Numbered from the stretch's first letter, positions 6,187 to 52,416 are shown. The stretch: DNA of 64,000 bases from an uncultured Nitrososphaeraceae archaeon (GCA_963779615.1 CAVZZA010000005.1:224001-288000); one strand, 5' to 3'. Numbers and translations: made by a program. The notes: generated from the sequence alone by a model not told the origin.

Positions 6187-6632
6187 CTCTTACCTATGTT
6201 TCCGTCATCTTATTCTTTATAAGGATAATCATTAACATTCAGACTGTTCACTTAACACCACTTGATCTTTTACTTATTATTAGTAACCAAAAAGAAACAT
6301 GTTTGACAAGAATTTTAGGTTAAACCATCGTAAGTTTATTAAAAGTCCAACAATGCTGCCTCCAGGTCCCTGTGGGTGCTTCTAACTTTGTTAACCTTTG
6401 GAAATTGAAAGCCAATAACTGAAATCCAAATTACAATGTACCTCCTGATACCGATTTATCAAATTATGATATGGATTTGACATGGTTGTAAAGCGTTTTC
6501 AGTTCTTTTTGGCAGTGCTGAACCCGACACCATAAAAAAGGGAGCTAATGTGGGGAATAGGACTTGAGGGATGGAACAGATTAGAAAGAATGCTTATAAT
6601 TAAACTATTGTTATGTCCTTTCGATAACAAAA

Positions 6633-7620: not shown

Positions 7621-9204
7621 TTACTCAGACCGTATAACTGGTGGTGGACTCCACGTTCCATTCAGTATAGAATCGTCAGGCAGGTATAAACGCAAAACCA
7701 GTTTGATTTTATCGGACACTTGAGCTGATGGTGCTGGCAGCCAGTTTGATTCCTTATCGGGCCCAGGGTTTGTATTCTGTATGTATATGTCAAGTGAACC
7801 GTCTGTGTTGTTCTTTAACCCTTCAGTGTATTGCCCTACCAAATAGCGATTTATTGGGTTGTCCACAAACAATGATTGGTTATTATATATGGTTAGGGAC
7901 CAGAATGAATTTACAGGTGGAAGCTGCCCTGGTTCGAAGTGGACGGTATAGTTTTTGTCTCCGGTGAGCAGTTTCCCTTCAGAATCTACAAACGTGACTG
8001 GATAGATTGCCTCCTGTCCTGTATTTGCGCCAACACCCACAACAACAGTTGCAGCACGGAACAGGTAGTCAGTTCCAAAGAGGCCTGTTGCCGCATTTAC
8101 CGTCCAACCGTTAACATTGGCTCCGAAGTTTGCCACCTTCGCATTTATCAGTTTTTCACCCTCTGTTATGCCAGTTTGAAGGGCTGATTTTATTGTGCCA
8201 TTTGCTTGGGTTGACGGAGTCATTCCAGGACCAATACCTATAGATGCGAGTTTTTTGACAAGCGTAGGGTCAGGCGGATTCAATGGATTAACGGTCATGG
8301 CAGCGCTAATTTCATCGTATATTTTGATGCCTGTGGTTGGTATAAACGGAGGTCTTGGGCTTATTGGGACTTGAGCATCGGATTCATTTGTCATTGCTGT
8401 TGTGTTTGAAGGCTGGCTGGTCGATGCTGGGGCTGCTGAGTTGCTCAAATAGGCTGAAAGAGGCATCACTTTTATCCGGTCTTGAATAGCTTTTACATTG
8501 GGAGTATCAGATGGACCTTTTATTAAAATCCTGTTTAATACCATTGTAAGGTCGGTCGGAGACCATATCTTAGTCATTCCCTCTGGAACGGTGCCTTCCC
8601 AGTTAGGGCCTGCAATAAGATATGTACCGCCTTCTGAGCCAGTGGCCCTTGTGCCAAGGTATTGGTAATTATTTGTGTAAGCATCCATTAACTGAAATGA
8701 GTAATACCTGTCTGGCTCAATTGGAGGTATCTGTAAAACAATTGGTTCGCTTGTCATATTTAGGAAAGCATAGCCATAAAGTGTATCTGCGTTTGGGGTG
8801 ACAGTACCGGTGTCATTGGCAGTTATAAGTTGTCGTGCAAACGTTATGTTGTTTTCAGGTCCTGCCAAATTTATTCCCTTGGCTATGGAGTCCGGGCTTG
8901 TGTAATACTCATTAAATCGCTCCATAGTTACAAGCGGAAAGCCCCAAATGTATGCGAGGGTGGCAATATCTCCAGGTGTGTCTGAACTCGAAATATCCAC
9001 CATTCTCTTTTCTATGTCGCTACCGCTTGAACTATCTGAAATACTCAAACTATTAGAGTTTGTTAAACCAGATGATGAAACAGAAGTTGAATTTTCCTGA
9101 GCTGTTGCTGCTGTTGCAATTAAAGGATTGATACCAATAAATGGTGATACCATCAAAATGCCCGTTAAAAACAGAGGAAGAAGGATTGTCTTGTGGATTC
9201 TCAT
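7621..9204 (-). CDS. Secreted DUF1254/DUF1214 family protein
   Basis: Signal peptide; AYIWGFPLV, TPNADTLY, RYYSFQLMD, FWSLTIY, DGSLDIYIQ, SNWLPAP, LRLYLP...GTWSPP. Confidence 0.9.
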   Translation of the reverse strand: MRIHKTILLPLFLTGILMVSPFIGINPLIATAATAQENSTSVSSSGLTNSNSLSISDSSSGSDIEKRMVDISSSDTPGDIATLAYIWGFPLVTMERFNEYYTSPDSIAKGINLAGPENNITFARQLITANDTGTVTPNADTLYGYAFLNMTSEPIVLQIPPIEPDRYYSFQLMDAYTNNYQYLGTRATGSEGGTYLIAGPNWEGTVPEGMTKIWSPTDLTMVLNRILIKGPSDTPNVKAIQDRIKVMPLSAYLSNSAAPASTSQPSNTTAMTNESDAQVPISPRPPFIPTTGIKIYDEISAAMTVNPLNPPDPTLVKKLASIGIGPGMTPSTQANGTIKSALQTGITEGEKLINAKVANFGANVNGWTVNAATGLFGTDYLFRAATVVVGVGANTGQEAIYPVTFVDSEGKLLTGDKNYTVHFEPGQLPPVNSFWSLTIYNNQSLFVDNPINRYLVGQYTEGLKNNTDGSLDIYIQNTNPGPDKESNWLPAPSAQVSDKIKLVLRLYLPDDSILNGTWSPPPVIRSE

Positions 9205-9818
9205 GTATTTTTGTAATGTGAGTGATATTTAAGCATGATAGTCAGTAATATGTTCCTTTATGAGATATCGATTCATAACTTGGTAAATGTTCAGACCTGA
9301 ACATCTACCTTTTTTTGACATACTTTTGAAAAGAAACGGATTCATTCATTTTGTGTTTATCATCCCGTAAAAAACAGCATAACAATGACACTAGACAAAT
9401 CAGAGGAAATGTTTACGGTGTCCTTTCAATTTCTATGACGCCCTGTTCAGCCGTCCTTGACAAACGTCAACTTGGCAGCACCCTTAACCGTCTTGCTTGC
9501 CGGCCCTTTCCAAAAGAGTCGCATCATTTTCACCCATTCTTCTTGTGGGCTCGTCCATATCCCTTTCAAGGTTGGACTTGAAGAAGATTGGTTTGACAAT
9601 CTCATCATCTGAGGTTTCACAAAGTTCACGGTTTAGAGTTTTTAAAGGTGCAAGAAATCGCCCCCATTATAGCTGCTTGTTACAGCATCCAGGGCATTAC
9701 TACATGTGTTGTTTTTTGTGTTGTTTTTGAATCATATAACATAATATGGCATATCCCTGATTCGAATTGACTTAAGTCCGGTTTGATAACCTTTGCAGCA
9801 TTCTGACCTTGCGTGCAT

Positions 9819-10205
9819 TTACCCTTCATACATATGATATACCTTGGCGATGATGTGCCAGGTGCCATCTGTCTTGATGAGCGTGTGAAAGTCGGTATAG
9901 TCAGCGCCAATCGCGTCATTCTCCATGTCGACGCGCACAACCGCCGTCGTTGGAGTTATCGCGAGCACGTCGAGCCGAGTCTTGATGTCGGGCGCGGAGC
10001 CGTTCTTCTGGACAAATTCGTAGAGGTTTTTGATTGGGCCGCCTAGCAGCTCGCCATTGGTGAAGCCATACATGACGGCGTCCTTGTGGAAACCCTGGGT
10101 GAGGCTGGGGATGTTGCCGATGCGTAGACCCTCGACATATTTGGCGACTGTCTCAACAACGTCTTCAAAGTCTTGGGTAGGCACAGTCTTGATATTCTTT
10201 GACAT
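9819..10205 (-). CDS. NTF2-like (putative lumazine-binding family) protein
   Basis: YVEG...FHKDAVMYG...YTDFHTLIKTDGTWHIIAKVYH; GC-rich coding sequence. Confidence 0.8.
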   Translation of the reverse strand: MSKNIKTVPTQDFEDVVETVAKYVEGLRIGNIPSLTQGFHKDAVMYGFTNGELLGGPIKNLYEFVQKNGSAPDIKTRLDVLAITPTTAVVRVDMENDAIGADYTDFHTLIKTDGTWHIIAKVYHMYEG

Positions 10206-10452
10206 TGGGATTCTTTTTCAGTGGATATGAAGTGAATTTATAATTAAACTTAACAGCAGAAGAATATATTAAGAGATTGACAATACCTAACAGGACAAAA
10301 GGAAATATCATCCTACGAGTACAAGTTAAAGTCCATCATCAAAAAAAAGATATCCAAACTAATGGACAGGGAACTGCCCTTGATGTCATCACTATTCCCC
10401 AACCTTAATCTTGACCCTGCCAAAAACGGTCAAGCAATTCACCCCACTCAAT

Positions 10453-10488
10453 GCGAGGGTCGCGGGTTCGAACCCTCCTCACTTCACC
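10453..10488 (+). other. Possible degenerate tRNA 3'-half remnant
   Basis: GAGGGTCGCGGGTTCGAACCCTCC...TTCACC resembles variable loop, T-arm and acceptor 3' strand; the T-stem is imperfect and there is no 5' half. Confidence 0.3.
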
Positions 10489-10602
10489 TTTTGGGAGTTG
10501 AAATACTATTTCTTTTAATTTTATGCATATCTTTGTACATTATACATAAATGCTCAACCTGGTTCTAAGATAGACTTCATTCACTTTTGAACCGCATCCC
10601 AC

Positions 10603-12453
10603 TCAGTCCGAAGCCATGCCCACGGTTTGGAAAGCCTCAATAGTCGCAGTTGGCACTACCACGCCGACATCCCTTGCGAACTTGTCGTAATCTGATATCA
10701 TCTTTTTGAGTGTGTCAGGATGCTGGCTGGCCAGATCATTGTTTTCCCCGATGTCGGCCGTAATGTTGAACAGGTGCCACTGACCATCACCCGCTGGTTG
10801 GAAGTTCCTCACTGCCTTCCAGTCCCCCATCCAGACAGCGGTGTTGTTGAACATTTCCTGGGCAACCGGTTCGTTGTCCGTATATGCCTTTTCAACCTTG
10901 CCTTCCAAAAGCGGCTTAAGGGATTTTCCCATTACCGCATGGACCGGATGGCCTTGGTATGCTGAACCTGGGGGCTGCACGCCTGCATAGTCAAGGAAAG
11001 TGGGTGTCATGTCGTTCACGTGCACAAATGCGTTTACTATGCCTGGCTGCGTTTGGCTGGCACTACTGCCGGGCAATTTCATCACAACCGGGGGCCTAAC
11101 TCCGCCTTCACCCTGCGTTGTCTTGAAGTACGAGAATGGTGAGACAGCAGCCCCTGTGCCCCATGAGCCATAGTTGACCAGCGAGTTGGCGTTTCCCACG
11201 TTCGCGGGGGTATTGTTAAACGAGCTGAAGAATTTGTTTGCCTCTCCAACCCCCACAGTAGCCAAATTTTTCATTTCAATCGGTTCACTGCTTCCGTTGT
11301 CGGATGTGAACACGATCAGTGTATTGTCGTACTGGCCGGTGTCCTTTAGGTGTTGCATAACCCTGCCTATGTTATGGTCCATGTCCTCTATCATTCCCGC
11401 ATGGGCCTCAAGCACACTGGCTCTGTAGGCTTTGTCGTCTGCACTCAGGCTATCCCATGCCGGTATTTGCGGAAGCCTTTGTGGAATACCCATGTCTTGC
11501 GGCCATATTCCAAGCTGTTTTTGCTTCTCAAACCTCTGTTCCCTTATCTTGTCATATCCCACATCGTAGACCCCTTCATATTTTTTGGTGAACTCTGCAG
11601 GTGCCTGGAACGGACTGTGTGCTGCCTGGAAAGAAAGGTACATGAAAAGCGGGTTGCCGTCGCCCTGATGCTCCCTTATCTTGTCAAGCATGATGTTTGT
11701 GTACATTTCATTTGAGTAGGTGCCGTTGTCAGGTCGCGGAACCTGTGTATCGTTGGACAGAAACGTTGAGTGGCCACCGGCATAGTACGGGTCACCGTTA
11801 AAATGCATGGCCCCGGACTCCAGCAGCACAAAAGCATCCTCAAAGCCCCTGTCATGAGGGGTTGTGCCCTTCTGCCATCCGGGCCCAGACAGGTGCCACT
11901 TGCCTGACATCAGGGTGTCGTACCCCGCATCCCTTAACGATTCTGCAACGGTAACGACCCTGTCGTTTATGTATGTCTCATAGCCTGGCTTCCCCACCTG
12001 GTTGGGGGCGATGTTTTCATACATGGTTCCTATGCCACCCACATGGTTGTCAACGCCGGTGAGAAAGGATACCCTGGCTGGAGAGCAAACAGGGCTAGTG
12101 TGGTAGTTGGTCAGGATCTTGCCCTCTGCCGATAGCTTATCCAGGTTGGGGGTTGAGATCTCGCTTCCAAAGGATCCAATGTCAGAAAACCCAAGGTCAT
12201 CCCCCATTATCACCAGTATGTTTGGCTTTGCGTTTGTGCTAGAAGGAGGAGCAGCAGCGGTATTGTTGCCAATTGCGGCCTGGGCAAACGCTGGTTGAGT
12301 AGTTAAACTTGCTGATGATGATGATGAAGAGGAGGAGGAGGATGGCGACAATGATATTAACGGTACTGTTATGAGACTGAGTGTGAGGCAAACAAGAATA
12401 AGTAAGGTGGAATAATACGATATATTGCTTATAAATTTATCCAACAATTCCAA
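10603..12453 (-). CDS. Secreted arylsulfatase (type I, Cys-type, AtsA-like), copy A
   Basis: KPNILVIMGDDLGFSD, CSPARVSFLTG (CxPxR), GKWHL, FTSDNG; hydrophobic N-terminus and poly-Ser linker. Confidence 0.95.
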   Translation of the reverse strand: MELLDKFISNISYYSTLLILVCLTLSLITVPLISLSPSSSSSSSSSSASLTTQPAFAQAAIGNNTAAAPPSSTNAKPNILVIMGDDLGFSDIGSFGSEISTPNLDKLSAEGKILTNYHTSPVCSPARVSFLTGVDNHVGGIGTMYENIAPNQVGKPGYETYINDRVVTVAESLRDAGYDTLMSGKWHLSGPGWQKGTTPHDRGFEDAFVLLESGAMHFNGDPYYAGGHSTFLSNDTQVPRPDNGTYSNEMYTNIMLDKIREHQGDGNPLFMYLSFQAAHSPFQAPAEFTKKYEGVYDVGYDKIREQRFEKQKQLGIWPQDMGIPQRLPQIPAWDSLSADDKAYRASVLEAHAGMIEDMDHNIGRVMQHLKDTGQYDNTLIVFTSDNGSSEPIEMKNLATVGVGEANKFFSSFNNTPANVGNANSLVNYGSWGTGAAVSPFSYFKTTQGEGGVRPPVVMKLPGSSASQTQPGIVNAFVHVNDMTPTFLDYAGVQPPGSAYQGHPVHAVMGKSLKPLLEGKVEKAYTDNEPVAQEMFNNTAVWMGDWKAVRNFQPAGDGQWHLFNITADIGENNDLASQHPDTLKKMISDYDKFARDVGVVVPTATIEAFQTVGMASD

Positions 12454-12808
12454 AGGTTATTGCTAGATGTTATATAACGGTTTACAAAATTCTTAATCTT
12501 AAGAACCTTAACCTATACATTTTTGAATTGTCAGTTTTTGTTGCGTAAAATATTCAAAAATAAAGAAGAAATTTTTCTATAACCTTGGCGTTGGTTATTG
12601 TCAACATAACGCAAATCCATATTAAAATTCCCGTATTTTTAAAACCACACATGTGTTATGTCCAAAGACTTTCGACTTTCCTATACCATTTCCGGAAAAA
12701 GATGAAATTGTAAAACTAGACGTCATTTCAAGTTATTCTGAAACTTATCCATTATGCGAACTCAATACGAAAATGAAGGAAATCAATACCACTTGGGGTA
12801 TTGGTGTT

Positions 12809-13798
12809 TTAGACGCTGCTTCGGGTGGTCCTGGTAATGCACCTAAACCCGATGTGGGTCATCCCTGTGTCGACCATCTGTGGTTGCCGGGCCGCGGGCC
12901 GGTATCGCAAGCAATAGTTTGGGGCGCAGATGTGCGAGCCCCCTTTCACCACTTTTCGCGGGATCTTGAACTGTGGCTGCCTCGGATCATAGCTGTACTC
13001 GGCCGACGTAACCCTTGGGTTGACAGAGGCAGTGCAGCATGTTTTCACCTTATTGGCAGATTCATCCAAATGCGGGACATACCAGTCGGCTGTCCATTCC
13101 CAGACATTGCCCGCCATATCAAACAAGCCATAGCCGTTGGGTTCAAATGAGCAAACAGGGGAGGTGCCTTCATGTTTGTCTGTCAAAAGGTTCTGGTGAG
13201 GGAATTCTCCCTGCCAGGTGTTGGCCATGGGTTTTGTAAGCTGCGTGTCTTCATTTCCCCAGGTGAAATCCATTCCATCCAAACCGCCCCTTGCTGCAAA
13301 CTCCCATTCTGCCTCTGAGGGCAACTCTTTTCCTGCCCATTTCGCATAGGCTTCTGCGTCCTCATAGGCGATGTGGACTACAGGGTGATCATCAAGTCCA
13401 ATAATGGTGCTGCCAGGCCCATGTGGGTGCTTCCAGTTTGCGCCCTTTACCCATTGCCACCAGTTGGCATAGTTTTTCAAATCAACAGCTTCATTCCTTT
13501 TTTGAAAAACCATGGAACCCGGAGCAAGATTCTCCTCCGGGACGCCTGGAAAGTCAGACGGATTCAATGGTCTTTCTGCAACCGTCAAATAATTGGTCGC
13601 CGACACAAAACCACTAAACATCCTGTTGGTCACAGGGGATTTATCCATCCAGAAGCCGTCCACTGTAACCTTATGCACCGGTTTTTCCTCCGGGTAGAAT
13701 TTATCCGAACCCATCATAAAACTCCCGCCATCTATGAAAACCATTTTTTCATGGTCAGGCGCTTTTTGCCCTTTGCCGATTTCCGTTGTGCCTAACAT
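12809..13798 (-). CDS. Formylglycine-generating enzyme (SUMF1/FGE sulfatase maturase)
   Basis: FMMGS..YPEE.P.H, HPVVHI, LPSEAEWEFAARGG, NGYGLFDMAGNVWEW, KGGSHICAPNYCLRYRPAAR with both active-site Cys. Confidence 0.95.
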   Translation of the reverse strand: MLGTTEIGKGQKAPDHEKMVFIDGGSFMMGSDKFYPEEKPVHKVTVDGFWMDKSPVTNRMFSGFVSATNYLTVAERPLNPSDFPGVPEENLAPGSMVFQKRNEAVDLKNYANWWQWVKGANWKHPHGPGSTIIGLDDHPVVHIAYEDAEAYAKWAGKELPSEAEWEFAARGGLDGMDFTWGNEDTQLTKPMANTWQGEFPHQNLLTDKHEGTSPVCSFEPNGYGLFDMAGNVWEWTADWYVPHLDESANKVKTCCTASVNPRVTSAEYSYDPRQPQFKIPRKVVKGGSHICAPNYCLRYRPAARQPQMVDTGMTHIGFRCITRTTRSSV

Positions 13799-13823
13799 GT
13801 TCAATTGGTTTTGTTGTTGTTAG

Positions 13824-15365
13824 TCACCTGGCAGCTTCCGACATTTTCGCCATCGCGTCATCTATCGTGAACGAGTTTGGCTTTTGGATGGCCGGGAACT
13901 CCTTGAAGGTTTCGGCAAACTTCGCGACAGCAGCCTGTGCTAGGTATATGCCATATGCGTGGTGTATCATCCAGTCCCAATACGTGTTCGAAGTTATATC
14001 CGCAGAATTCGTATGGGTCGGTGCGAAGGTTGAAAATCTTTGGGAGACGAAGTCGGGTGAAGGGCTCAGCCCAAACCCCCAAGGTTCCCTTCAAACGCTG
14101 CTCCATGAATACGAACTTCCAGTTGTCAAAGCGTATGCCCATCACATCACCATCGTCACTGAAGTAGAAGTAAAAGTTGCGGGGGCTTTCTTTTGCCTCA
14201 CCGGTCAGGTATGGCAGCAGGTTATATCCGTCGATATGGTTCTTGTAGGTGCGCCCGATGGCTGTGTATCCATTCTTCAGTTTCTCCACCACTTCTGAAT
14301 CGCCCGCCATGGCAAGGAAAGTTGGCAGCCAGTCATGGTGCTGAACGATCCCGTTGGAAATTGAGCCGGCCTTGATTTTGCCTGGCCAGCGCACAAGCAA
14401 CGGAACACGGAAAGCTCCTTCCCAGTTGGTGTTCTTTTCGCTGCGGAATGGGGTTGTGGCGCCATCGGGCCAGGAGTTGCTGTGCGGCCCGTTATCGGTG
14501 GAATACATGAGAAAGGTATCTTCGGCAATCCCAAGCTCGTCGAGCAGATCAAGCATTTCTCCAACGTTTTTGTCATGGTCGATCATTGTGTCGTGATAGG
14601 CAGATTGCCATCGGCCTGCCTGCCCCTTGCTTGAGGGTTTGGGATGTGTAATAAAGTGCATATGAGTAGTGTTGAGCCACACAAAAAACGGTTTCCCAGC
14701 GTCATGTTGCCTCTTGATAAAATCCTTGGCTGCTGAAACAAATTCGTCATCGCAGGTTTCCATCCTTTTTTTTGTGAGGGGCCCAGTGTCCTCAATTTTT
14801 TGCCTGCCCACTTTTCCCCACCGCGGCATTTCTGTCGGGTCATCCTCGTCTGTGGCCCATGAGTGGAGCACACCGCGGGGACCGAATTTTTCAAAGAATT
14901 GCGGAAAATCTTTTTTTGAGGGATAGTCATCCATTTCAGGCTCCTCTTCCGCGTTGAGGTGATAAAGGTTGCCAAAGAACTCGTCGAATCCGTGATTTGT
15001 GGGCAGCATGTGGTTAAGGTCGCCCAAATGGTTTTTACCGAATTGCCCAGTTGCATAACCCTGTTCCTTCAGCAACGCGGGATCGTCACGATCTTTTCAT
15101 TCATACCCACCGGTGCGCCGGGCATTCCTACTTTGGACAAGCCGGTGCGGTAAACGCTTTGACCGGTAATGAAAGACGAGCGACCGGCGGTGCAGGACTG
15201 TTCGCCATAGGCGTCTGTGAACATCATGCCCTCTTTTGCAATACGGTCAATGTTGGGTGTTTGGTAACCCATCAATCCATGTGAATAGCAACTGAGATTG
15301 GTTATTCCAATATCATCGCCCCAGATGACAAGAATGTTGGGCTTATTTTGCTTTGAATTTGACAT
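13824..15365 (-). CDS. Cytoplasmic arylsulfatase interrupted by two 1-nt frameshifts (~15080 and ~14005); pseudogene or sequencing error
   Basis: [36 protein letters not shown]; repaired junctions read VTIAALLKEQG and [15 protein letters not shown]...KMSEAAR*. Confidence 0.9.
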
Positions 15366-15827
15366 GGTTTTTTGAGCAATTGATTTAACTTAAGTGTTAT
15401 GGATGAAGTAATTGCCAACAATCACGAGCAATCCTGTGTCGATGTGCGCTACATTCTGGAATTCTTACTGTGCAGGATAACGCGTGTAAATCAGTCTCTC
15501 ATTGAGTAATAACATGTTTCCACCTCTTGTCACGAATCGATATTAATGGCAATGCATGGTATATGTACTTGCCTGCTTTGACATATAACAGTTCCACTAA
15601 TTGTCTTGGATATCAGCGTATTCCCCAGCCAATCCGTGGCACAAAAATCTGACGAATTCATGGTTGTTGATTGGGCCCATTATTTGCATGTTATTGTCCT
15701 GTTTATGGTATAACATCTATTCAACATCTGAAAGTTTTTTACGGGTGTTATCCTTGAATTGTACAGCCTTATGCGGGTTGATTCCTCGCATATATGTTTA
15801 TAATTGGCTCAGCGGATGTAACAACAA

Positions 15828-16298
15828 ATGCCCAATCAGACCGGAGAGGGAGATGACAAGGATAAGCCCACAAAAACCACCTCAACCGACCATTACGATA
15901 GGGTTAGCGCGGCCTTACGTGAATCCTCCATATTGATGTCAGGATCCAGCATCCTTTTTGGATTCTTGCTTAACATCAATTTGGATTCCCTTAAAACCCC
16001 GTCTTTTGTGGACGGCCTGATTATGTTGGCATCAATTTATTCTGTGACTATAGCAACCGTGCTCTTTATCATGCCGGTCATTTTCCACCAGAGGCATTCC
16101 CAAACGTTTGATGTGGAAAAGTTCCTCTCCATGTCAAAAAAGTTCCTTCTCGGTGGCGCATCGTTGTTGTTGCTCACAATGTACCTGACTTTGGGATTGG
16201 CGCTCCATAAAACAGTGCCTGACTATGTTGCGTTTACTTTGGCGGCGTTTCCGTTTGTCGTCATGGCTGTTGTGTGGCAATTCAAACTCAAGTCATAG
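15828..16298 (+). CDS. Four-TM membrane protein (DUF6328-like)
   Basis: LRES.IL.SG..ILFGFLL and LFIMPVIFHQ pattern; four hydrophobic helices. Confidence 0.65.
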   Translation: MPNQTGEGDDKDKPTKTTSTDHYDRVSAALRESSILMSGSSILFGFLLNINLDSLKTPSFVDGLIMLASIYSVTIATVLFIMPVIFHQRHSQTFDVEKFLSMSKKFLLGGASLLLLTMYLTLGLALHKTVPDYVAFTLAAFPFVVMAVVWQFKLKS

Positions 16299-17132
16299 GC
16301 AACCAGACCGGAATTAAATGGCGAGTGTGACGTCATCGAGCTCCATGCAGGCATCATGGAATACGCCATTAAAGTTTCGGGTTTGGCCTCTATTTCCTGC
16401 TCTTCAAAGTTTATGTAATCCGTTGTGGATTCACATCGGCATCCTTGATTTCCACAATAACGTAATTTCATTGGCATCAGATAATTAGGATTATGGATAG
16501 GGGCAACAATATAATTTACCTCTTGTATAATTAGCACCTGTTAGAAAATTTCTAAAAATCTCTTGTTCTCATTCATTTTTGCTAGAACCGTATCCCGTTA
16601 ATGAGAAAATCATAGGAGAAAAGGAATTCACCATGCCTTATCAGCGACCTGTTGCATGAAGGCTAACCAGTCACAAATAATGGATCATTGCATTCGCAGC
16701 TAAATAGATTGGATTATGCAACAAAGCATTAAGGTCAACCATCTATTTTACTTGTTTGGAGTTCAATGCTATCGTCTTCACTTGGAGATTTATGATGGAG
16801 TATGCACATGAAAGCCATTTAACTGCTGGAATCCAGCATTCCACATATTACCCCAGCATAAACTGACAAAAGCAACCTTTAATTTCAATTTTGGTTTTAA
16901 CTTTACAATAATAACATCATTTCCGGAATGGGAAAAACTATCATCAACAATCATCGATGCAATTCCATCTTTAAGGGGCAGAATATCTTCCCACGCTAAG
17001 ATGCGAAATAGCCGGCATGAAACCAATAAAAATAGAAACTGTTACCACTATAACATCCATTAGCTATACCTATCACCGGCCGACAGAAAACGGCATATTA
17101 GTGGATCATCCAAAAGATGATATTTACCGTCC

Positions 17133-17774
17133 ATGAACAATAAACAGATGGATACCAAAACGCCTCCTCTCTATTTTCGCCTATTGCAATTTGGGATTGG
17201 AATAGCGTCCATCACATTATCACTTATAGTTATAATGGTGGGATACCCTGTTCTCGACCTATCTACAATTATAATACTGCTTTTAATCTCACTACTTGTT
17301 ATTGGTATTGGAAGAATTGTTAGAGGCCTATTAATCCCATCTATTTCCACTGTCACAACAGAAAGGGATGCAAAAAAAGTAAGAAAAGCAGGCCTAACTG
17401 ATCTTGTTCTAGGAACAATATCAATCCTATTTGCCACAATATGTTTGATTTTTCCACAGACTGCATCTGAACGGTTATTTGTTTTACTTTCTCTCACAAT
17501 TATTGTAATGTTCAACGGTTTTGGTAAGGTTATTCAAGGCGTATTTAACAAGCAGGAATCAAAATCATTAAGAGTAATGAGCACAAGTTTTGGTCTTGTC
17601 GCCATGGGTTTAAGCATTTTTGCATCAAACGCTTATAGATTTGATATAGTTTTTCCCACCAAGGTTCTTTCAGTCATTCTTGTCATTTATGGAATAGAGA
17701 ATATTATTTTATCATATACAGGCGAATTATCTGTAAATGATATCTTTAAAAAGAGAAAGAACAGACACCGTTAA
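17133..17774 (+). CDS. Six-TM membrane protein (HdeD/DUF308-like)
   Basis: Repeated hydrophobic hairpins (LLVIGIGRIVRG, LVIYGIENII). Confidence 0.65.
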   Translation: MNNKQMDTKTPPLYFRLLQFGIGIASITLSLIVIMVGYPVLDLSTIIILLLISLLVIGIGRIVRGLLIPSISTVTTERDAKKVRKAGLTDLVLGTISILFATICLIFPQTASERLFVLLSLTIIVMFNGFGKVIQGVFNKQESKSLRVMSTSFGLVAMGLSIFASNAYRFDIVFPTKVLSVILVIYGIENIILSYTGELSVNDIFKKRKNRHR

Positions 17775-18280
17775 TCCTGCGGTTTTTTGCAGGCAGTGCG
17801 ACTTGTACTGTTTGTTGGGGTTTTTTGGTTGAAATCAACTGCAGTAACAGTTCATCCCCTCCCAAGTCACAAAACCTTCATCGTTGCCGTTTACATTATT
17901 TTCAGATTATGGATATTTCTACATTTGATTAAATGTCACAGTAACGAAGCCTTAAAGTGGAAATTTAATGGTGACATGGAGTTTATTGTTACTATACAAA
18001 AGAGCAATACTTATGCAGTGAAACTCCAAAAATCATCTGATTATTCAAACCTGAAAAACAAATTCAAGCTGCGACCAACGCATTGGGATGGTGTCCTGAC
18101 TCAAACCACAAGTGGACAGGGCTCTCAAGCCATAGGCTTATCGTTAAGTGTCCAGGCCACGAGTTAAAATGGCATTTTTATACATGTTACTCGACGTGTG
18201 CCACCACACAAAGATAGGCCACATAAAAGAAAAAATATTGATGGGAGGATGCATATAGTTGTTGACTGGGGTAGCCTCAG

Positions 18281-19402
18281 TTATCTATTTGTCCCGGTTT
18301 CATTTTGGGGAGGATATATAACCGCAAAGTCATTCTTCATGCTTACCAAATCCCAGTTTCTGTCCTTGGCTGCCTGCAGCACATTTTCAGCACCCTTGTC
18401 ATAGGAGTATTCCCTTACGCCGTCATCATGATGGACAAGAATCTCAAGGGATTTGCCAACTTTGTTGTTGTCATCTGTGTACGTTAGCATTTGAAGGTCA
18501 CCATCCGAGTTTCCTGCGGCAAGTATGGGCACCTGCCCTATATGAAGTTGAATGTTCTCGGGCTTTACCTCATTGTTGTCGAATGAATCAAGTTCCGGCT
18601 CCCTAAATATGGCAGAGTTCCCCCCGTCAGTTCCGTTAACATACTTGTATTTTATGCTGCTTCCTATTATCTGGTCTGGCGGTATCCCATATACATTGGA
18701 GAGGGAGTCCCTCATAAAGTCAACCCCACCCCCTGAGACTATGAAAACCTTGAATTGGTTGTCCTTAAGATAATCAATGAGTTCAATCATCGGCTGGTAC
18801 ACCATTGCTACAAATCTTAGGTGGGTTTGTGGATGCTGTGCTGTCTTTGCCCATTCCATAACCATTCTGTCAAATGTGGGCTGGCTAATGTTTGAGAGGG
18901 TCAACAGCGCCAGGGACATGACATCCTTTTCGCTTAACTGCAAATCTGTAAAGTTATTCGCCATCAGCTGTTGGAGCTGCGGGTTTTGGGTAATCCGAGG
19001 GTTTGACACAGACAGCTCGTCAAGCCTATCTGTTATAAAAAAACCCTGAAAGGGAATGGGTTTTTCGGCCCAGAGTGTTCCGTCGTTGTCAAAGACCGCT
19101 ATCCTCTCCCCAGGTGGAACATAGTTTGGGCTTTCAGGGTTGGTTACATTATTTACAAAGTTAACGATCCTCTCTTTCACCGTGCCCTGGTTCCAGGAAG
19201 GAAGTGCTTGGGTGGAGCTGGGGGATAAATCCGGTTTGCCGGTGAGGTTTTGATCACCAAGCAAAGAACTGTTGGGTAAGGTGGAATTGTCAACCTGTGC
19301 AAAGGCGTGTGATACTGCGTTAAATGAAAAAGGCACACTTGACCCAACAACAAAAGTCAGGCTGGCCAAAAAAAAGAGGAGTAACACCGTTTTATAAGTC
19401 AT
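18281..19402 (-). CDS. Secreted HAD-superfamily phosphatase
   Basis: Signal peptide; LPSWN; AVFDNDGTLWAE (motif I); IVSGGG; GNSDGDLQML; HHDD.REYSYD. Confidence 0.9.
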   Translation of the reverse strand: MTYKTVLLLFFLASLTFVVGSSVPFSFNAVSHAFAQVDNSTLPNSSLLGDQNLTGKPDLSPSSTQALPSWNQGTVKERIVNFVNNVTNPESPNYVPPGERIAVFDNDGTLWAEKPIPFQGFFITDRLDELSVSNPRITQNPQLQQLMANNFTDLQLSEKDVMSLALLTLSNISQPTFDRMVMEWAKTAQHPQTHLRFVAMVYQPMIELIDYLKDNQFKVFIVSGGGVDFMRDSLSNVYGIPPDQIIGSSIKYKYVNGTDGGNSAIFREPELDSFDNNEVKPENIQLHIGQVPILAAGNSDGDLQMLTYTDDNNKVGKSLEILVHHDDGVREYSYDKGAENVLQAAKDRNWDLVSMKNDFAVIYPPQNETGTNR

Positions 19403-19423
19403 GTGTCATCTTTTCCCATTAAA

Positions 19424-21319
19424 CTAGTTGATGATGGCTTTGGCACTTGTATCGTTCAGTGGGTAGCCTGGAGCGAACATGTTACCCAAAGTAATGGTTT
19501 GTGTGTCTTTTTGGGTTACAGGTGGAAAATTATTCTTGGCAGTTTGTTCAAATGTCTCGCCTCTCGGAATTACAACTCCCACAGCCTGAGCGTATTTGTC
19601 GTATTCTCCAATCAGAGTCTTCAAAATGTCTGGATGCTGGGCTGCCAGGTCGTTGTTCTCACCCAAGTCAGTTGCTAGGTTGAACAATTTCCACTGTGGT
19701 GGAAAACCATACGAGTTGGCCTTCCAGTCACCCATGCGTACGCTTGTGTTGTTGAACATTTCACCGGATATGGCTTCGTCTGCTGGATGGATTGTCTCCA
19801 CCGTTCCTTCAAGGAGCGGTTTAAGGGACTTGCCCATCAATGCGTGAACTTCGTGTCCCTGATATGCTGAAGGATGAGACACGTTTGCGTATTCAAGGAT
19901 TGTGGGGGTAACATCTGTAACATATGCAAAGCTCTTGACAAGGTTGGAGGCTGTGTTGTTGACTGATGGTGCGGATGTTTGCGGTTCCTTCATTACCATC
20001 GGGGGTCTTGTGCCACCTTCATACAGGCTTGTCTTGTAACCGGATAGTGGGGAAGTTGCCACATATGAGCCCCATGCGCCATAGTTAAAGTCTGACGTGT
20101 TGGTGCCAAGGTTTGGCAAACTGTTGTTGATTCCGGCCACAAACTGCTTGGCATACGACAGGTCTACACCGCTTGCGTACCTGAACAAGGCAATCTCAAA
20201 GGGCTCGCTGCTGCCATTGTCCGAGGTAAACATAATGAATGTATTGTCGTACTGTCCGGTGTCCTTGAGGTATTGTATAACCCTTCCAATGTTCGTGTCC
20301 ATGTCCTCTATACCGGCTGCATGTACTGCCAGTACCCTTGCTGCATAGGCCTTCTGGTCACCGCTAAGGCTGTCCCATACCTGGTTTGGAGGAAGTCTGC
20401 CCGGATCCGTCATGTTGGAGGGCCAGAACCCAAGCTCCTTCTGTTTCTCAAACCTCTGGTCTCTTACCTTGTCCCATCCTACACTGTAAATTTTGTCATA
20501 CTTGTCTATTACAGATTTGTCTGGAGCCATCATTGGGGAATGGGCTACCTGGTATGCAAGGTACGCAAAGAATGGTTTCTTTTCTGACTCGGTCTTCTTA
20601 AAGAAGTCCAGCATCTTGTCTGTGTAAAGTTCATTGGAAAACAATGTGCCGTTACCCGGTCTGTCAACCTTTGTTTTGTTTTCCATGAATGTTACTGACC
20701 ATCCGGGGACATACTCTGCGGAACTGTAGTGGTTAGCCCCGTCTTCCAGGAGAGTAAATGCATTGGAAAATCCCCTTTCATATGGCGATGTGCCGGGCTG
20801 GTATCCATGCCCAGAAAGATGCCACTTTCCGGACTGTATGGTGTTGTATCCCGCATCCCTCAACAGCTCTGCAACAGTCACAACCTTGTCGTTTATGTAG
20901 GTCTCATAGCCGGGCTTTCCCACCTGATTTTCGGCTATCAGCTCATACATCGTGCCAATTCCGCCAACATGCCAATCAACACCCGTTAACAAAGATACTC
21001 TAGCAGGTGAGCAGGTGGGCGCTGTGTGGTAATCGGTTAAAACCTTTCCGTCCTTGGCAATCATATCCAAATTCGGTGTTGAAATTTCGCTTCCAAAAGC
21101 ACCGATATCAGAATATCCAAAATCATCACCCACTATTACCAAAAAATTTGGTTTTTGATTTCCAGTTCCGGCTGCAGGTTGCGCGGAAACAGGCTGACTA
21201 TATAAGTTGGAAAGTGAAGAATTTAGTGCTGGCATTGCAATAAGTCCAAAACTCATAAAAAAAATCAAAATAATTGGCAAAATTTTCCTATTTTTCAATA
21301 TTTTTGTTGTATAACACAT
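19424..21319 (-). CDS. Secreted arylsulfatase (type I, AtsA-like), copy B
   Basis: KPNFLVIVGDDFGYSD, CSPARVSLLTG, GKWHL, FTSDNG; signal peptide; close paralog of copy A. Confidence 0.95.
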   Translation of the reverse strand: MCYTTKILKNRKILPIILIFFMSFGLIAMPALNSSLSNLYSQPVSAQPAAGTGNQKPNFLVIVGDDFGYSDIGAFGSEISTPNLDMIAKDGKVLTDYHTAPTCSPARVSLLTGVDWHVGGIGTMYELIAENQVGKPGYETYINDKVVTVAELLRDAGYNTIQSGKWHLSGHGYQPGTSPYERGFSNAFTLLEDGANHYSSAEYVPGWSVTFMENKTKVDRPGNGTLFSNELYTDKMLDFFKKTESEKKPFFAYLAYQVAHSPMMAPDKSVIDKYDKIYSVGWDKVRDQRFEKQKELGFWPSNMTDPGRLPPNQVWDSLSGDQKAYAARVLAVHAAGIEDMDTNIGRVIQYLKDTGQYDNTFIMFTSDNGSSEPFEIALFRYASGVDLSYAKQFVAGINNSLPNLGTNTSDFNYGAWGSYVATSPLSGYKTSLYEGGTRPPMVMKEPQTSAPSVNNTASNLVKSFAYVTDVTPTILEYANVSHPSAYQGHEVHALMGKSLKPLLEGTVETIHPADEAISGEMFNNTSVRMGDWKANSYGFPPQWKLFNLATDLGENNDLAAQHPDILKTLIGEYDKYAQAVGVVIPRGETFEQTAKNNFPPVTQKDTQTITLGNMFAPGYPLNDTSAKAIIN

Positions 21320-21614
21320 TCATATAAATATATGCCATAATGTTCCTATATAGGATAATCAATGCATATTCAGGCCACATGTCAAAACATCAAAGATTAG
21401 CACCGACTTGAAGGGTTCCCCCCCTTCTATTCATATTTGTCTTTTAGACGGTTTTTTCAGTGAAATAGGTTAATGGTCTAGGGTTTGGATTTGGATTCGA
21501 TGCAGCGAGAAGGTGACGGTAATTCTCTAACCAGTAAAGTTTCCGGATATTGCCTGCAATACCAACGCAAGCACGTTAATGCTACCTTCTTCTGTACTCT
21601 GTTAACCCATCAGC

Positions 21615-22409
21615 CTATCTAACACCATTGGGATTCCGCTCCGCACTGTTCTTAAGGCTCAATGCTAGGGGATTGCCAGGCTCGATCGCAAGTACCTTGT
21701 CAAAGTGTGCAATCGCATCATTGTTTTTCCCCAAACTGTAAAGTGAAAGTCCCTTGTTGAGAAGGGCATCAACATTTTGCGGCTCAATTTTCAGTGCCTT
21801 GTTGTAAGACGATACCGCCCCCTCAAAGTTGTGCAACTGGGAAAGTGCCCGCCCCTTGTTAATCAAGGCCTGTATGTCATTTGGGTTTATGGACAGTGCC
21901 TTGTCGTAGTATTTTATGGCCTCGTCAAACTTTTTTAGGCTGTCAAATGAAATGCCCTTGTTAACCAGTATGCGGGTGTCGTTTGGGTCTATCGACAGGG
22001 CCTTCTCGTAGTATTTGATGGCCTCGTCAAACTTCCCCAAACTGACCAGGACTGCTGCCTTGTTGTTTATCGCATTTTTGTTGTTTGGGTCTATCGACAG
22101 GGCCTTCTCGTAGTAAACCATCTCTTCGTTGAATCTGCCCAAACCGTCCAAGGATATACCCTTGTTTATCAACGCAAGCACATTGCTTGGGTCTATCGAC
22201 AGGGCCTTGTCCAAAACGGGCAGGGCATCATCAAACCTTCCCATACTGTTGAGAATTACTCCCTGCTCAATCAGCTTGGTGGCATTTCCCATAGTATTTG
22301 CAAACGAATGTTGGTCAGGTACCCCAAGGGACAAATTGGAGAGAATAAACATCAGAGTCAGTGCAAAGAACATTGATGACATTGGAAATGTCTGAAAAAA
22401 CATAACCAT
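21615..22409 (-). CDS. Secreted or membrane-anchored TPR protein
   Basis: About six 34-aa repeats (ALINKG..L..LG.FDEA..YY.KALSIDPN); N-terminal hydrophobic segment. Confidence 0.9.
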   Translation of the reverse strand: MVMFFQTFPMSSMFFALTLMFILSNLSLGVPDQHSFANTMGNATKLIEQGVILNSMGRFDDALPVLDKALSIDPSNVLALINKGISLDGLGRFNEEMVYYEKALSIDPNNKNAINNKAAVLVSLGKFDEAIKYYEKALSIDPNDTRILVNKGISFDSLKKFDEAIKYYDKALSINPNDIQALINKGRALSQLHNFEGAVSSYNKALKIEPQNVDALLNKGLSLYSLGKNNDAIAHFDKVLAIEPGNPLALSLKNSAERNPNGVR

Positions 22410-22564
22410 TTGCTGAAAAAGGACACTGATAACAAATAAAAACGTTGTATCACGTCCGGAGGTACATATATGGCCATCAAGAATTTATGCATGTTCCCCT
22501 TTCCCCTAAAACCATCAGGTTGGGAAAATGTAAATAAGGCACTTGGCACGCTAACATTGTTACA

Positions 22565-23284
22565 ATGAGTTTAAATTTATTTTTCTTGACAATTATTCTC
22601 TCTTTATCTATAGTGTTTGGTGTCTCTAGTGTGTTAGCCTTCCCTCTTGCGTTTGGTCAGGTATCGCCGCCTTCCGCAACCGTTAACGGTAGCACTTCAA
22701 ATGGCTCTGCCGTAACCACCGACAATGGCACAAGGGGTTTGGATTCACCAAATGTTATCAAAAAATTGGAGGGTGTCGCTTCCCTATCAAACATCGTGGG
22801 AATAAGCATGGTTGACGGGGTCAAACTTAGCGGAGTGAGGTTGGGGGACACTGACGTGTCTGTAACCCTAAGGTACCAACCACTCCAGCCCAGCCTTGCA
22901 AACAAGTCATTGCCCGTGACCGTGATTGTGACAAAGCTGCCTGTGGCTAACCTTACTCAATTGATATCATTGGTTGAATCCTCCAAGTCCATGGCTATGT
23001 CAACAAGCAATGCAGGTTCCATAGACTCTTTGCTCGGCCAACAGGGGACGAATTCCATGATGGGTAACAATGCACTGCAAATACTGTCTTTGGTTAAAAA
23101 CATCCAGCTTGGGGCCGGCAGCATAGTCACAGGCAATTGGTCATTACCCCAAACCATTTCCATGGGTCTGCTTGGAAGCATGAGAGGGGGAGCGGAAGCA
23201 TCTGCCGTACCAAATGATTTTGTCACCGTGGTGGTTGTTCCTTTTTCGGGTGAGAGTTCTTTTCCGTCCGTTTCACTAAATTAG
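22565..23284 (+). CDS. Secreted hypothetical protein
   Basis: ATG start, signal peptide, several N-x-S/T sequons; no recognised family. Confidence 0.7.
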   Translation: MSLNLFFLTIILSLSIVFGVSSVLAFPLAFGQVSPPSATVNGSTSNGSAVTTDNGTRGLDSPNVIKKLEGVASLSNIVGISMVDGVKLSGVRLGDTDVSVTLRYQPLQPSLANKSLPVTVIVTKLPVANLTQLISLVESSKSMAMSTSNAGSIDSLLGQQGTNSMMGNNALQILSLVKNIQLGAGSIVTGNWSLPQTISMGLLGSMRGGAEASAVPNDFVTVVVVPFSGESSFPSVSLN

Positions 23285-23689
23285 CAATTTATGTGCGGTA
23301 AAGCAGTTTTACCACAAGTTGCAAAAAAATTCGCTTTTATTTTTTTTCCAAAGAGATAGGTAAAATACTATATATTATCCTCCTCTCTCCGTATTCCCTC
23401 GTTTATGGTGATGAAAGAGCAGCATTAAACCAATAAGCCCAAATTGATGCTACTAGACCTATAGTCCATATTTTGTACAAGTCCTTTGGTTAGTAAAACA
23501 TTTGTGATTATGTTATTGATTTAACAGGATAACCATCTGAGCAAGATTGATAAATTAGAAATGTAAACTTAAGACATATATGGATTATGTTTCAAACCTA
23601 ATTTACAGCCATTAAACTAAATCAAGAAAACAACTGTTACTAGAAAAAAGAAAAACATTGTGCTTTACACTGAATTGTGTATCACCTCA

Positions 23690-24290
23690 TGCTGAGGATC
23701 CTGCCTTTGCTGGTGGTGGTGGACTCCACGTTCCAACCAGAACCGTTTGGCTTGGCAAATGCAGACGCAAGGATAGCCTGAATGAATCTCGGGTGCAGGT
23801 AACCAGTTGGATTCTTTCTCCAGACTCCAGACCAGGGTTTGCGTTATGTATGTAAATATCAGGTGAGCCATCACTGTTGTCCTTTAATACTGTGCATGGT
23901 CCTGTGCATGGGCTTGCGAGGTAACGAGTTATTTGATTGTTCACAAAATAGGAAGCGGTGACACATATTGATGCGGACCAAAAGCCATGTACTGGCGGTT
24001 GCGGCGGTCCTGGGTCAAAATGAATCACATGACTGTTATTTCCGTTTAGCGATTTTCCTTCACTGTCTGTGAATGCAGGTGGACAAATAGCTTCCTGGCC
24101 TAAATTAATATCGTGTCCACCTTTTGTAACCCCTGCACGGAAAAGATAACCAGTCCCATAAAGCCCTTCGTTTGTACTCTGCCACCCATTTACCGGTGTT
24201 CCTAAATTAGGTACTTGTACTGCAATCAGTTTTTCACCTCTGTTATACCGGTTGGAAGGGCTTTTTTATTGTGTCATTTGGCCTGAGTTG
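23690..24290 (-). pseudogene. DUF1214 (C-terminal half) pseudogene
   Basis: Fragments HFDPGP.PPVHGFWS, DNSDGSPDIYI, LSLRLHLP...GTWSPPP; DNA similarity to ~7640-8215; frameshifts. Confidence 0.85.
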
Positions 24291-43120: not shown

Positions 43121-43197
43121 GCTGTGGAATGATTTTAAAAAAAAATATTGAAAAACAATTCTAAACTATCATACATAAAAAACGTATATGCGTACAC

Positions 43198-44316: not shown

Positions 44317-44411
44317 TTCTTATAAAGCATTTAAGTTATTTTAGTTTATTTATTTATATTTTTTAGCCACCAATCTCATAAATCAAAATGAGTTTGGCTG
44401 TTCATTTACTG

Positions 44412-45539: not shown

Positions 45540-45543
45540 TTTT

Positions 45544-52414: not shown

Positions 52415-52416
52415 TT

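Follow-up and report, generated by a model that had tools for sequence, protein, structure and literature searches.

A candidate sulfate-ester island composed of two gene modules in the genome of an ammonia-oxidising archaeon of the family Nitrososphaeraceae

A stretch of 64,000 nucleotides from an uncultured Nitrososphaeraceae archaeon (hereafter the window; GCA_963779615.1, CAVZZA010000005.1:224001-288000, which is C5:224001-288000 of the genome denoted here G000) carries, between 5.4 and 28.4 kb, an island of genes coding for sulfatases, a formylglycine-generating enzyme (FGE) and several exported proteins (Table 1). With moderate confidence, and based on sequence comparisons, this locus can be interpreted as an accessory ‘organic-ester’ island of a soil ammonia oxidiser that consists of two modules of different history and would release sulfate for assimilation. 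The first module would include two exported AtsA-like sulfatases (denoted sulfA and sulfB), a secreted DUF1254/DUF1214 protein, and an exported hydrolase of the HAD superfamily whose gene is predicted to share a transcript with sulfB; its sulfatases would represent a family-specific lineage. The second module would be the sulfC-FGE cassette, which appears to encode a cytoplasmic arylsulfatase together with its own copper- and oxygen-dependent maturase, and in which sulfC branches beside several bacterial phyla and seems to have spread later among the Nitrososphaeraceae.

The assembly that includes the window comprises 3.17 Mb in 5 contigs, with a GC content of about 36%. The host is an ammonia-oxidising archaeon of the family Nitrososphaeraceae, given that the assembly contains an archaeal amoA gene (1.6e-117) and that a Pfam scan of the open reading frames (ORFs) of the window detects TFIIB, along with a lysine-biosynthesis cluster; the relatives retrieved with sulfA are labelled Nitrososphaeraceae as well. 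An earlier note on this DNA, made from the sequence alone, had already suggested such a host, and its description of the intact genes stands too: two AtsA-like sulfatases with signal peptides and the CSPAR motif, an FGE with both catalytic cysteines, a secreted HAD phosphatase 21 bp after sulfB (the gap is 19403-19423), an intact DUF1254/DUF1214 gene and a TPR gene were all recovered.

The sulfatase domain (PF00884) is complete in both sulfA and sulfB (profile positions 1-301 of 301), and the GDD, GKWHL and SDNG motifs are readable in sulfA. In sulfA, an N-terminal hydrophobic segment is followed by a poly-Ser linker and AFAQA, and sulfB also starts with a hydrophobic segment; judged by eye from the translations, as was done throughout, signal-like N-terminal segments are present in sulfA, sulfB, the HAD protein, the DUF1254/DUF1214 protein, the TPR protein and orf239, and absent from FGE and sulfC. 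The closest relative of sulfA in the Protein Data Bank (PDB) is the arylsulfatase of Pseudomonas aeruginosa (1HDH; 1.8e-119, residues 75-600 against 3-528), to which sulfB can be aligned as well (4.8e-114, residues 55-583 against 3-527), with its cysteine in register with the modified residue of 1HDH; carbohydrate sulfatases give partial matches at 1e-43 or weaker, and phosphonate monoester hydrolases match at about 1e-14. By domain and motif, sulfA and sulfB thus qualify as predicted type I (formylglycine-dependent, S1) sulfatases.

The distribution of these enzymes was surveyed in 200 other Nitrososphaeraceae genomes; the co-occurrence counts given here and below were made by hand, take one and the same set of 200 genomes to underlie all families, and refer to related genomes that are not independent of one another. 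Matches to sulfA at E<=1e-50 are found in 42 of the 200 genomes and in 13 of the 18 genera (the genome of the window counted); 34 of these genomes encode AtsA-like proteins at 43% identity or more, and the remaining eight possess a longer sulfatase that is about 30% identical. The sulfatases are, therefore, not peculiar to a single genome, AtsA-like proteins being encoded in 34 of 200 genomes of the family; in the genus of the window, three of the 33 genomes yield a sulfA match. In a sample of the class, matches were detected in 9 of 39 genomes of the family and in none of 261 genomes from 14 other families. A protein database holds more than 100 relatives of sulfA at 53-87% identity, one of them named Nitrososphaeraceae, and the best plasmid-borne bacterial gene is 41% identical. 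The AtsA-like sulfatases thus appear to be a lineage specific to the family Nitrososphaeraceae; orthologs of sulfB (72% identity) are present in G051 and G112.

The FGE domain (PF03781) is covered from profile position 3 to 254 of 255, and in the alignment with human FGE (1Y1E; 7.3e-69) both cysteines of the C-x4-C stretch fall on the cysteine pair of 1Y1E. Orthologs from other genera of the family are 79-87% identical to the FGE of the island; in the survey it is found in 19 of the 200 genomes, with at least 79% identity wherever the gene is whole, and decayed copies are found in G002, G013 and G195 (the last at 56%). G000 encodes a second FGE-domain protein (439 aa; C5:721138-722457, L067 1489-2808) with a DinB-like N-terminus and a single cysteine at the paired-cysteine site, which looks like EgtB/OvoA, so that the FGE of the island is, by sequence, the only bona fide FGE predicted in this genome. 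Frames resembling the 439-aa protein (about 380-490 aa) are present in 23 of 24 genomes of the genus and hint at ergothioneine-type thiol synthesis.

The gene for sulfC is present in 17 and that for FGE in 19 of the 200 genomes, and 16 genomes have both; the three cases of FGE alone lie at contig ends, and in all 17 loci that were fetched sulfC is followed by FGE on the same strand. In contrast to this tight coupling (16 of 17 sulfC-positive genomes), the overlap with the AtsA-like genes is at the level of chance, with FGE found in 4 of 34 such genomes (G051, G112, G143 and G162) and about 3.2 expected; thus, FGE belongs with sulfC. The adjacency of the two genes in all 17 loci suggests that FGE converts the cysteine of its client sulfatase to formylglycine, and it may mature sulfA and sulfB too. 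The earlier idea of one complete extracellular-plus-cytoplasmic module is not supported in this assembly, given that FGE tracks sulfC rather than the AtsA-like genes and that sulfC is frameshifted (see below). As for the co-occurrence of the families elsewhere, the absence of which the note had named as a possible refutation, the link of sulfC with FGE recurs in the family and those of the HAD gene recur both in the family and in bacteria, whereas the link of the AtsA-like genes with FGE does not rise above chance.

The history of sulfC differs from that of the first module. The protein is exceptionally well conserved: it is 94% identical to its nearest metagenome protein (P0229), 83% identical to an arylsulfatase encoded on a Neorhizobium plasmid, and 82-84% identical to proteins named Chitinophagaceae, Bradyrhizobium, Pseudaminobacter and Deltaproteobacteria. 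In a tree of 134 sequences, built by FastTree only and leaving out 4 of 120 proteins (shorter than 480 aa), all 18 sequences known to be archaeal fall into one clade of 58 (support 96), with the 8 named bacterial sequences outside, so that a single entry into the family suffices to account for the archaeal copies. Within this clade the genera are mixed, and the sulfC of the window is only 84% identical to that of G198, the only other intact copy found in the genus. Full-length matches were obtained in 13 genomes of other genera, at 86% identity in G196 and at 87-89% in the 12 others. The greater proximity to most other genera, together with the mixing, points to transfer of sulfC among Nitrososphaeraceae after its entry. 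The best identities to plasmid-borne bacterial genes are 63.5% for FGE, 45% for the HAD gene and 41% for the DUF1254/DUF1214 gene. A recent origin by transfer from bacteria, considered for the island as a whole, was rejected for sulfA, sulfB, the HAD gene and the DUF1254/DUF1214 gene (at most 41-45% identity to plasmid genes), and retained for sulfC.

The HAD protein covers profile positions 1-188 of 189 of PF12710 (34.5 bits, cut-off 27), and motifs I-IV (DNDGT, VSGGG, a conserved lysine and GNSDGD) are invariant in six orthologs. Its best relative of known structure is 4OVY (7.1e-68 over residues 65-366; 3.1e-93 by profile search), and phosphoserine phosphatase is matched at chance level in the PDB profile search (E 1.5); an AlphaFold2 model from a 6-row alignment was too poor for use (pLDDT 49, pTM 0.48). 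The HAD gene is present in 21 of the 200 genomes, nine of which also have an AtsA-like gene (about 3.6 expected) and nine FGE (about 2.0 expected); 15 of the 21 possess an AtsA-like gene, FGE or sulfC. The order sulfatase-HAD on one strand is seen in the window, G085, G112 and G143, and in G051 the order is HAD-sulfC-FGE-sulfB-sulfatase-DUF1254/DUF1214. Nine of ten bacterial HAD loci, a non-random set chosen among the first 15 of 224 listed plasmid records and including two near-duplicates, contain a sulfatase and/or FGE within 6-7 kb, in the arrangements sulfatase-HAD-FGE (Rhizobium gallicum), FGE-HAD-sulfatase (Caballeronia) and arylsulfatase-HAD (Roseibium, R. leguminosarum); the nine bacterial HAD proteins that were translated have signal-like, lipoprotein-like or Tat-like N-termini.

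The DUF1254/DUF1214 gene shows a similar association: it occurs in 25 of the 200 genomes, together with an AtsA-like gene in 8 (about 4.3 expected) and with FGE in 10 (about 2.4 expected), and lies beside sulfatases in the window, on contig C1 of G000, and in G051, G101 and G214. G000 has four further full-length paralogs, one of which adjoins the broken sulfatase on C1; in the single rhizobial locus inspected (Sinorhizobium meliloti pSymA, L065), no sulfatase is found nearby. The proposal that the HAD and DUF1254/DUF1214 proteins are partners of the sulfatases, thus, gains from the recurrence of both beside sulfatases in other genomes. Among the other secreted proteins of the island, the TPR protein has a 63% identical copy next to sulfatase fragments (C5:792872-793594), and stretches resembling orf239 lie beside the sulfA paralog (C5:530806-531135) and beside the HAD gene of G051 (L048, 32% identity). 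All five families followed in the survey occur together in only three of the 200 genomes (G051, G143 and G162); the genera g28 and g20 have the most island-bearing strains. Fused proteins (sulfatase with FGE, with DUF1254/DUF1214 or with HAD) were rejected as Rosetta-stone evidence, being mostly partial Pfam domains that look like merged neighbours, and were taken as a hint of adjacency only; P0146 may be a true sulfatase-HAD fusion.

The presence of a HAD protein with a DxDxT motif, predicted to be co-transcribed with sulfB, is compatible with a role of the exported enzymes in phosphorus nutrition, with the AtsA-like proteins serving, beside the HAD phosphatase, as promiscuous phosphodiesterases or phosphonate monoesterases. 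The weak Phosphodiest and PehA matches (Pfam and NCBIfam), the similarity to phosphonate monoester hydrolases in the PDB and a calcineurin-like phosphoesterase at 40515-41507 point in the same direction, but the match to a true arylsulfatase is better by about 100 orders of magnitude, the PehA score (81 bits) is far under the cut-off of 900, and both a second sulfatase and a dedicated FGE form part of the cassette, all of which renders this explanation improbable. A comparably low probability is assigned to the possibility that the sulfatases remodel sulfated glycans of the cell’s own matrix or envelope, or those on the surface of a host, instead of scavenging nutrients. Secreted TPR and RTX-repeat proteins, together with a GT2 glycosyltransferase nearby (38014-39402), would fit such a function, as would the recurrence of RTX-repeat genes beside the sulfatase loci of relatives; however, the closest solved relatives are of the aryl type, with only partial matches to carbohydrate sulfatases, neither a glycoside hydrolase nor a sulfotransferase was detected among the ORFs scanned, and sulfC and FGE are predicted to be cytoplasmic. 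Sulfate release for assimilation remains the favoured reading, with the moderate confidence stated above.

The sulfC gene is spread over three pieces (N-terminal, 15069-15365; middle, 13858-15096; C-terminal, 13824-14090), and no single continuous open frame exists. In a DNA alignment with the intact orthologs of G112, G143 and G051, one nucleotide is missing at column 292 (about 15079) and one is extra at column 1369 (about 14003), so that the reading frame of the N-terminal piece is resumed in the C-terminal piece, after a shifted stretch of 359 codons; a third single-nucleotide difference, at 13829, alters only the last residues. The motifs are retained, with CTAGR in the N-terminal piece and GKNHLG, STDNG and KNTNWEG in the middle piece, and PF00884 is matched at profile positions 86-300 (5.1e-32). 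The cytoplasmic CTAGR sulfatase that the earlier note had placed directly upstream of FGE is therefore correct with respect to motif, position and the lack of a signal peptide, and incorrect with respect to an unbroken frame. The two frame-breaking indels, one a loss and the other a gain, are separated by 1077 nt, for which either coincidence or a consensus artefact is offered as the explanation.

Intact sulfC orthologs (84-89% identity) are found in 14 genomes of six genera, and all 14, when translated, keep the frame at both sites. The extra bases at 14003 and 13829 are absent from near-identical DNA contigs of the public run X1; the eight X1 pieces listed differ from the window by 0-2 substituted letters each and, summed over about 1.6 kb, by 4 such letters and 2 single-base gaps. 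Contigs from the RNA libraries X2 and X7, which are 88-95% alike to the window and cover FGE, sulfC, part of the HAD gene, the lumazine-binding gene and the DUF1254/DUF1214 gene, carry an additional base at 15078-15080 relative to the window. They were rejected as evidence of expression of the island, since they come from relatives and RNA libraries can contain DNA. In this search of public runs, the best run contained 0.27 of the words sampled and the contigs that could be aligned were short; parts of the window without coverage are uninformative. The breaks in sulfC may be those of a real recent pseudogene or the result of a local assembly error.

If the breaks in sulfC and in the gene for a MIP-family channel at the edge of the island were assembly or consensus errors, the organism would have the complete module as first proposed, an explanation that has an appreciable, although minority, chance of being right. 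Apart from the X1 contigs without the extra bases at 14003 and 13829 (99-100% identical otherwise) and the frame kept at both sites in the orthologs and in the RNA-library contigs, it is favoured by the remainder of sulfC, which looks undamaged (84-89% identity to intact orthologs and 94% to P0229), and by the completeness of G000, which is 92.5% in 5 contigs compared to 99% for G012, G015 and G080, the single-contig genomes of the genus (2.8, 3.0 and 3.4 Mb). However, the rest of the window consists of long open frames with full-length Pfam matches, indicative of a low general error rate; three indels within one gene of 1.5 kb form a conspicuous cluster; the sequence at two of these sites is not a homopolymer run; and no run with the source reads could be identified. 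ATG-started ORFs of at least 300 aa number only 767 in the 3.17 Mb of G000, which implies either a low coding density or many interrupted genes and, together with the completeness, bears on the trust to be placed in any single frameshift. A run of housekeeping genes at 41561-53622 (minus strand), which served as an internal check of assembly quality, looks intact throughout; it encodes a KaiC/GvpD-like ATPase, a methylase with DUF357, and an M20 peptidase, homocitrate synthase and class III aminotransferase, the latter three being typical of LysW-type lysine synthesis.

Paralogs of the island genes are scattered through G000. At C5:525980-531135, a HAD paralog (76-78% identity, 525980-527065) lies next to a sulfA paralog and an orf239-like stretch; the sulfA paralog (C5:528495-530147) is 88% identical and carries a TAA stop. 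At C1:188415-192269, a sulfB-like gene lies next to a DUF1254/DUF1214 gene, each of them split between frames, and sulfatase fragments are found at C5:793353-793594 (with the TPR gene) and at C5:220033-220249 (sulfA, 3.8 kb upstream of the window). The genes sulfA, FGE and sulfC have a GC content of 0.51 and a third-position GC (GC3) of 0.57-0.58, the 97th percentile of the 767 genome ORFs of at least 300 aa, and the intergenic DNA of the island is host-like (GC 0.30-0.41). A contaminant or mis-join, which the earlier note had named as a possible refutation, was rejected in view of the paralogs at three other places on two contigs, the host-like intergenic GC and the orthologous clusters in relatives. 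The window contains no tRNA gene, the scanned ORFs include neither an integrase nor a transposase, and long direct repeats on the flanks were not found.

Taken together, these observations suggest the following scheme. FGE would turn the cysteine of the C-x-P/A-x-R motif into formylglycine in the cytoplasm, on sulfC and, prior to export, on sulfA and sulfB. Outside the cell, the exported sulfatases would then act on soil organic matter and cleave its sulfate esters with aryl or small alkyl groups, and the released sulfate would be assimilated, an ATP sulfurylase being encoded in G000 (1.5e-82); the HAD protein might strip phosphate from esters of the same pool, also outside the cell. With the sulfC arm disabled in this assembly and several paralogs reduced to relics, the repertoire would seem to be undergoing turnover. 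The AtsA of P. aeruginosa is part of the sulfate-starvation response. The view that such an island is unexpected in a chemolithoautotroph is overstated, because the release of sulfate supplies sulfur as a nutrient and is compatible with autotrophy.

Several findings weigh against this scheme. In this assembly, sulfC is frameshifted and the module hence is not complete; two further full-length sulfatase genes are broken in G000, and several sulfatase-like genes of relatives contain in-frame stops. Taken together, the frameshift, the broken paralogs and the stops in relatives imply that the island may be largely decaying. In its strongest form, that the island is mostly a relic, with horizontally acquired genes being lost and no sulfatase function under current selection in this strain, this explanation is unlikely. 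It draws on the two frame-breaking indels of sulfC, the frameshifted MIP gene, the relics of FGE, DUF1214 and DUF1254, the stop in the sulfA paralog, the split sulfatase and DUF1254/DUF1214 neighbour on C1, the two sulfatase fragments on C5, and the decayed FGE genes of relatives, but sulfA, sulfB, FGE, the HAD gene and the DUF1254/DUF1214 gene are full-length open frames with catalytic motifs, the X1 contigs without the extra base at 14003 imply that at least a sister strain is unbroken there, and the few differences between the window and X1 are atypical of long neutral decay. Other adverse points concern function. Of the 34 genomes that encode AtsA-like proteins, 30 lack the island FGE, so that this enzyme is not demonstrably the maturase of sulfA and sulfB, and a search of G000 for an anaerobic maturase (anSME) gave no match above the TIGR03942 cut-off (at best 25.5 bits against 349). 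The closed genomes G012, G015 and G080 of the same genus contain none of the five families; a SulP sulfate permease was not found in G000, other transporter families not having been searched; no characterised relative of the HAD protein is available in the PDB, NCBIfam or the Atlas, where it matches only clusters named ‘HAD family hydrolase’; and AtsA-type enzymes are promiscuous towards phosphate esters.

A more far-reaching possibility, advanced here as speculation of low probability, is that FGE, the exported 4OVY-family HAD and the highly conserved sulfC of about 515 aa constitute one mobile three-gene pathway shared by soil bacteria of several phyla and Nitrososphaeraceae, in which HAD and sulfC would act in sequence on a common and abundant soil compound that bears both phosphate and sulfate esters, or on its transport form. 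If so, ammonia-oxidising archaea, which are abundant in soil, would contribute to the classical ‘soil arylsulfatase’ activity.

Table 1. Predicted genes and gene remnants of the island, with positions counted from the first nucleotide of the window
Feature	Coordinates	Strand	Evidence and remarks
MIP-family (aquaporin-like) channel	5489..6189	-	PF00230 1.4e-47, from profile position 43 only; frameshifted near codon 21; high-GC flank
Possible FGE relic with in-frame stops	6343..6426	-	Weak: 40-nt direct repeat, 85% identical to FGE
Secreted DUF1254/DUF1214 protein, 527 aa, intact	7621..9204	-	PF06863 3.3e-44, PF06742 2.4e-34
Lumazine-binding/SnoaL-like protein, 128 aa	9819..10205	-	PF12893 4.8e-22
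sulfA, secreted AtsA-like type I sulfatase, intact	10603..12453	-	PF00884 1.3e-53, CSPAR
FGE (aerobic formylglycine-generating enzyme), cytoplasmic, intact	12809..13804	-	PF03781 1.2e-82
sulfC, cytoplasmic arylsulfatase of about 515 aa (CTAGR), frame broken	13824..15365	-	Pieces in separate frames
DUF6328 protein, 156 aa	15828..16298	+	PF19853 3.6e-12
Predicted membrane protein, 213 aa	17133..17774	+	Weak DUF308 match (0.0015); GC3 0.28, host-like
Exported HAD-superfamily hydrolase, 4OVY family	18281..19402	-	PF12710 3.7e-08, motif DNDGT
sulfB, secreted AtsA-like type I sulfatase, intact	19424..21319	-	PF00884 5.3e-50, CSPAR
Secreted TPR protein, 264 aa	21615..22409	-	TPR_1 2.1e-56
orf239, secreted	22565..23284	+	No Pfam or NCBIfam match
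DUF1254/DUF1214 gene relic, DUF1214 part only	23714..24241	-	tblastn 49% identity, residues 348-522
RTX-repeat protein	25300..26190	-	HemolysinCabind repeats
DUF1254 relic, two weak pieces	27686..28398	-	tblastn 36% and 25% identity, residues 74-295, 8e-15

The remaining features of the island are listed in Table 1; no NCBIfam family exceeds its cut-off for any protein of the island. Of the decayed copies that had been claimed on the flanks, the DUF1214 relic is confirmed, with PF06742 detected (5.6e-10) on the ORF 23687-24028, and the DUF1254 pieces are real, although they lie outside the range originally given. The putative FGE relic is 43% identical in tblastn to FGE residues 111-137, with two stops (a weak match, E 0.007 in a 3.7-kb target), and may be the remnant of a second FGE copy. 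Three small ORFs on the plus strand separate sulfC from the HAD gene; among these, the DUF6328 gene has no copy in the fetched loci of relatives, and the membrane protein is probably outside the module. An intact, 95% identical paralog of the MIP gene (G000:C3:805608-806306) reads straight through the frameshift site, and the N-terminal piece of the window copy is found in another frame; in two other genomes of the family, a MIP gene immediately precedes a sulfatase gene on its upstream side (L053 13914-14543, 81% identity; L029 9106-9588/L050, 33%). The lumazine-binding-like gene has the highest GC3 of the island (0.69) and an 87% identical copy in G125 (L068 7015-7398), 1.5 kb from FGE, and perhaps moves together with the sulfC-FGE cassette. 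Near the island, RTX (HemolysinCabind) calcium-binding repeats occur in small proteins, encoded at 29213-29944 in addition to the ORF listed in the table, and stretches similar to the latter, often several per locus, lie beside AtsA-like genes in eight loci of relatives (L030/L046, which overlap, L035, L048, L049, L051, L053 and L057).

Most of the soil sulfur is organic, and much of it consists of sulfate esters; arylsulfatase activity is a standard assay of soil health and is mostly attributed to bacteria and fungi. The Nitrososphaeraceae rank among the most abundant archaea of soils; should their secreted sulfatases be active, these archaea would have a part in sulfur mineralisation besides nitrification, and niche differences among them could depend in part on an accessory, mobile repertoire for sulfur acquisition. 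The conserved neighbourhoods provide a testable context for two families without an assigned function, namely the 4OVY-type HAD proteins (FGE and arylsulfatase neighbours in both domains of life) and the DUF1254/DUF1214 proteins (sulfatase neighbours in Nitrososphaeraceae), and the level of sulfC identity (82-94%) across archaea and distant bacterial phyla would represent an unusually clean case of a gene pool common to two domains. All enzyme families of the island are already known. So far as the literature shows, what is new is the family-wide but patchy sulfatase repertoire of the Nitrososphaeraceae, the sulfC-FGE cassette common with bacteria at more than 80% identity, and the recurrent FGE/arylsulfatase context of the 4OVY-type HAD. 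A full-text search, which did not extend to supplementary tables, the usual place of gene inventories, returned no paper on sulfatases in these archaea; one preprint includes sulfatases among transferred glycosylation-related genes linked to Nitrosopumilales.

Comparison with characterised systems delineates what is shared and what is distinct in the island. Like the Cys-type AtsA of P. aeruginosa (1HDH), sulfA and sulfB cover the whole catalytic domain, have a cysteine at the formylglycine position and keep the metal and substrate motifs; unlike AtsA, they have signal-like N-termini, with a Ser-rich linker in sulfA, and belong to a clade that within the sampled class is restricted to Nitrososphaeraceae and is at most 41% identical to plasmid-borne bacterial genes. 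The FGE resembles the known aerobic enzymes (human SUMF1, 1Y1E; Thermomonospora and Streptomyces, 5NXL, 6S07 and 2Q17) in its full-length match, in both active-site cysteines and in its location directly downstream of a sulfatase gene, and differs in being archaeal, in showing at most 63.5% identity to rhizobial plasmid FGEs and in being coupled, at the genome level, to sulfC and not to the secreted sulfatases. The counterparts of sulfC are bacterial cytoplasmic arylsulfatases of about 515 aa, from soil Alphaproteobacteria and Bacteroidota; with the one encoded on the Neorhizobium petrolearium plasmid NZ_CP123001.1 (WP_037145522.1), the 83% identity extends over residues 7-365 of the middle piece of sulfC, and the N-terminus without a signal peptide and the CTAGR motif are common to both, whereas the frame is broken in the window copy, the archaeal sequences group in a clade of their own, and no FGE is annotated in the 9-kb flanks of the Neorhizobium gene, in contrast to the invariant sulfC-FGE order of the archaeal loci. 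The HAD protein is clearly related to 4OVY, a structural-genomics entry, and its bacterial relatives are likewise predicted to be exported and lie beside FGE or arylsulfatase genes; the window protein is distinguished by a longer N-terminal linker. Finally, the DUF1254/DUF1214 protein shares both domains with its only PDB relatives, the structural-genomics entries 3U07, 3VB9 and 2P3Y from Vibrio parahaemolyticus, which also have no assigned function; in the window, the protein is predicted to be secreted and is encoded next to sulfatases.

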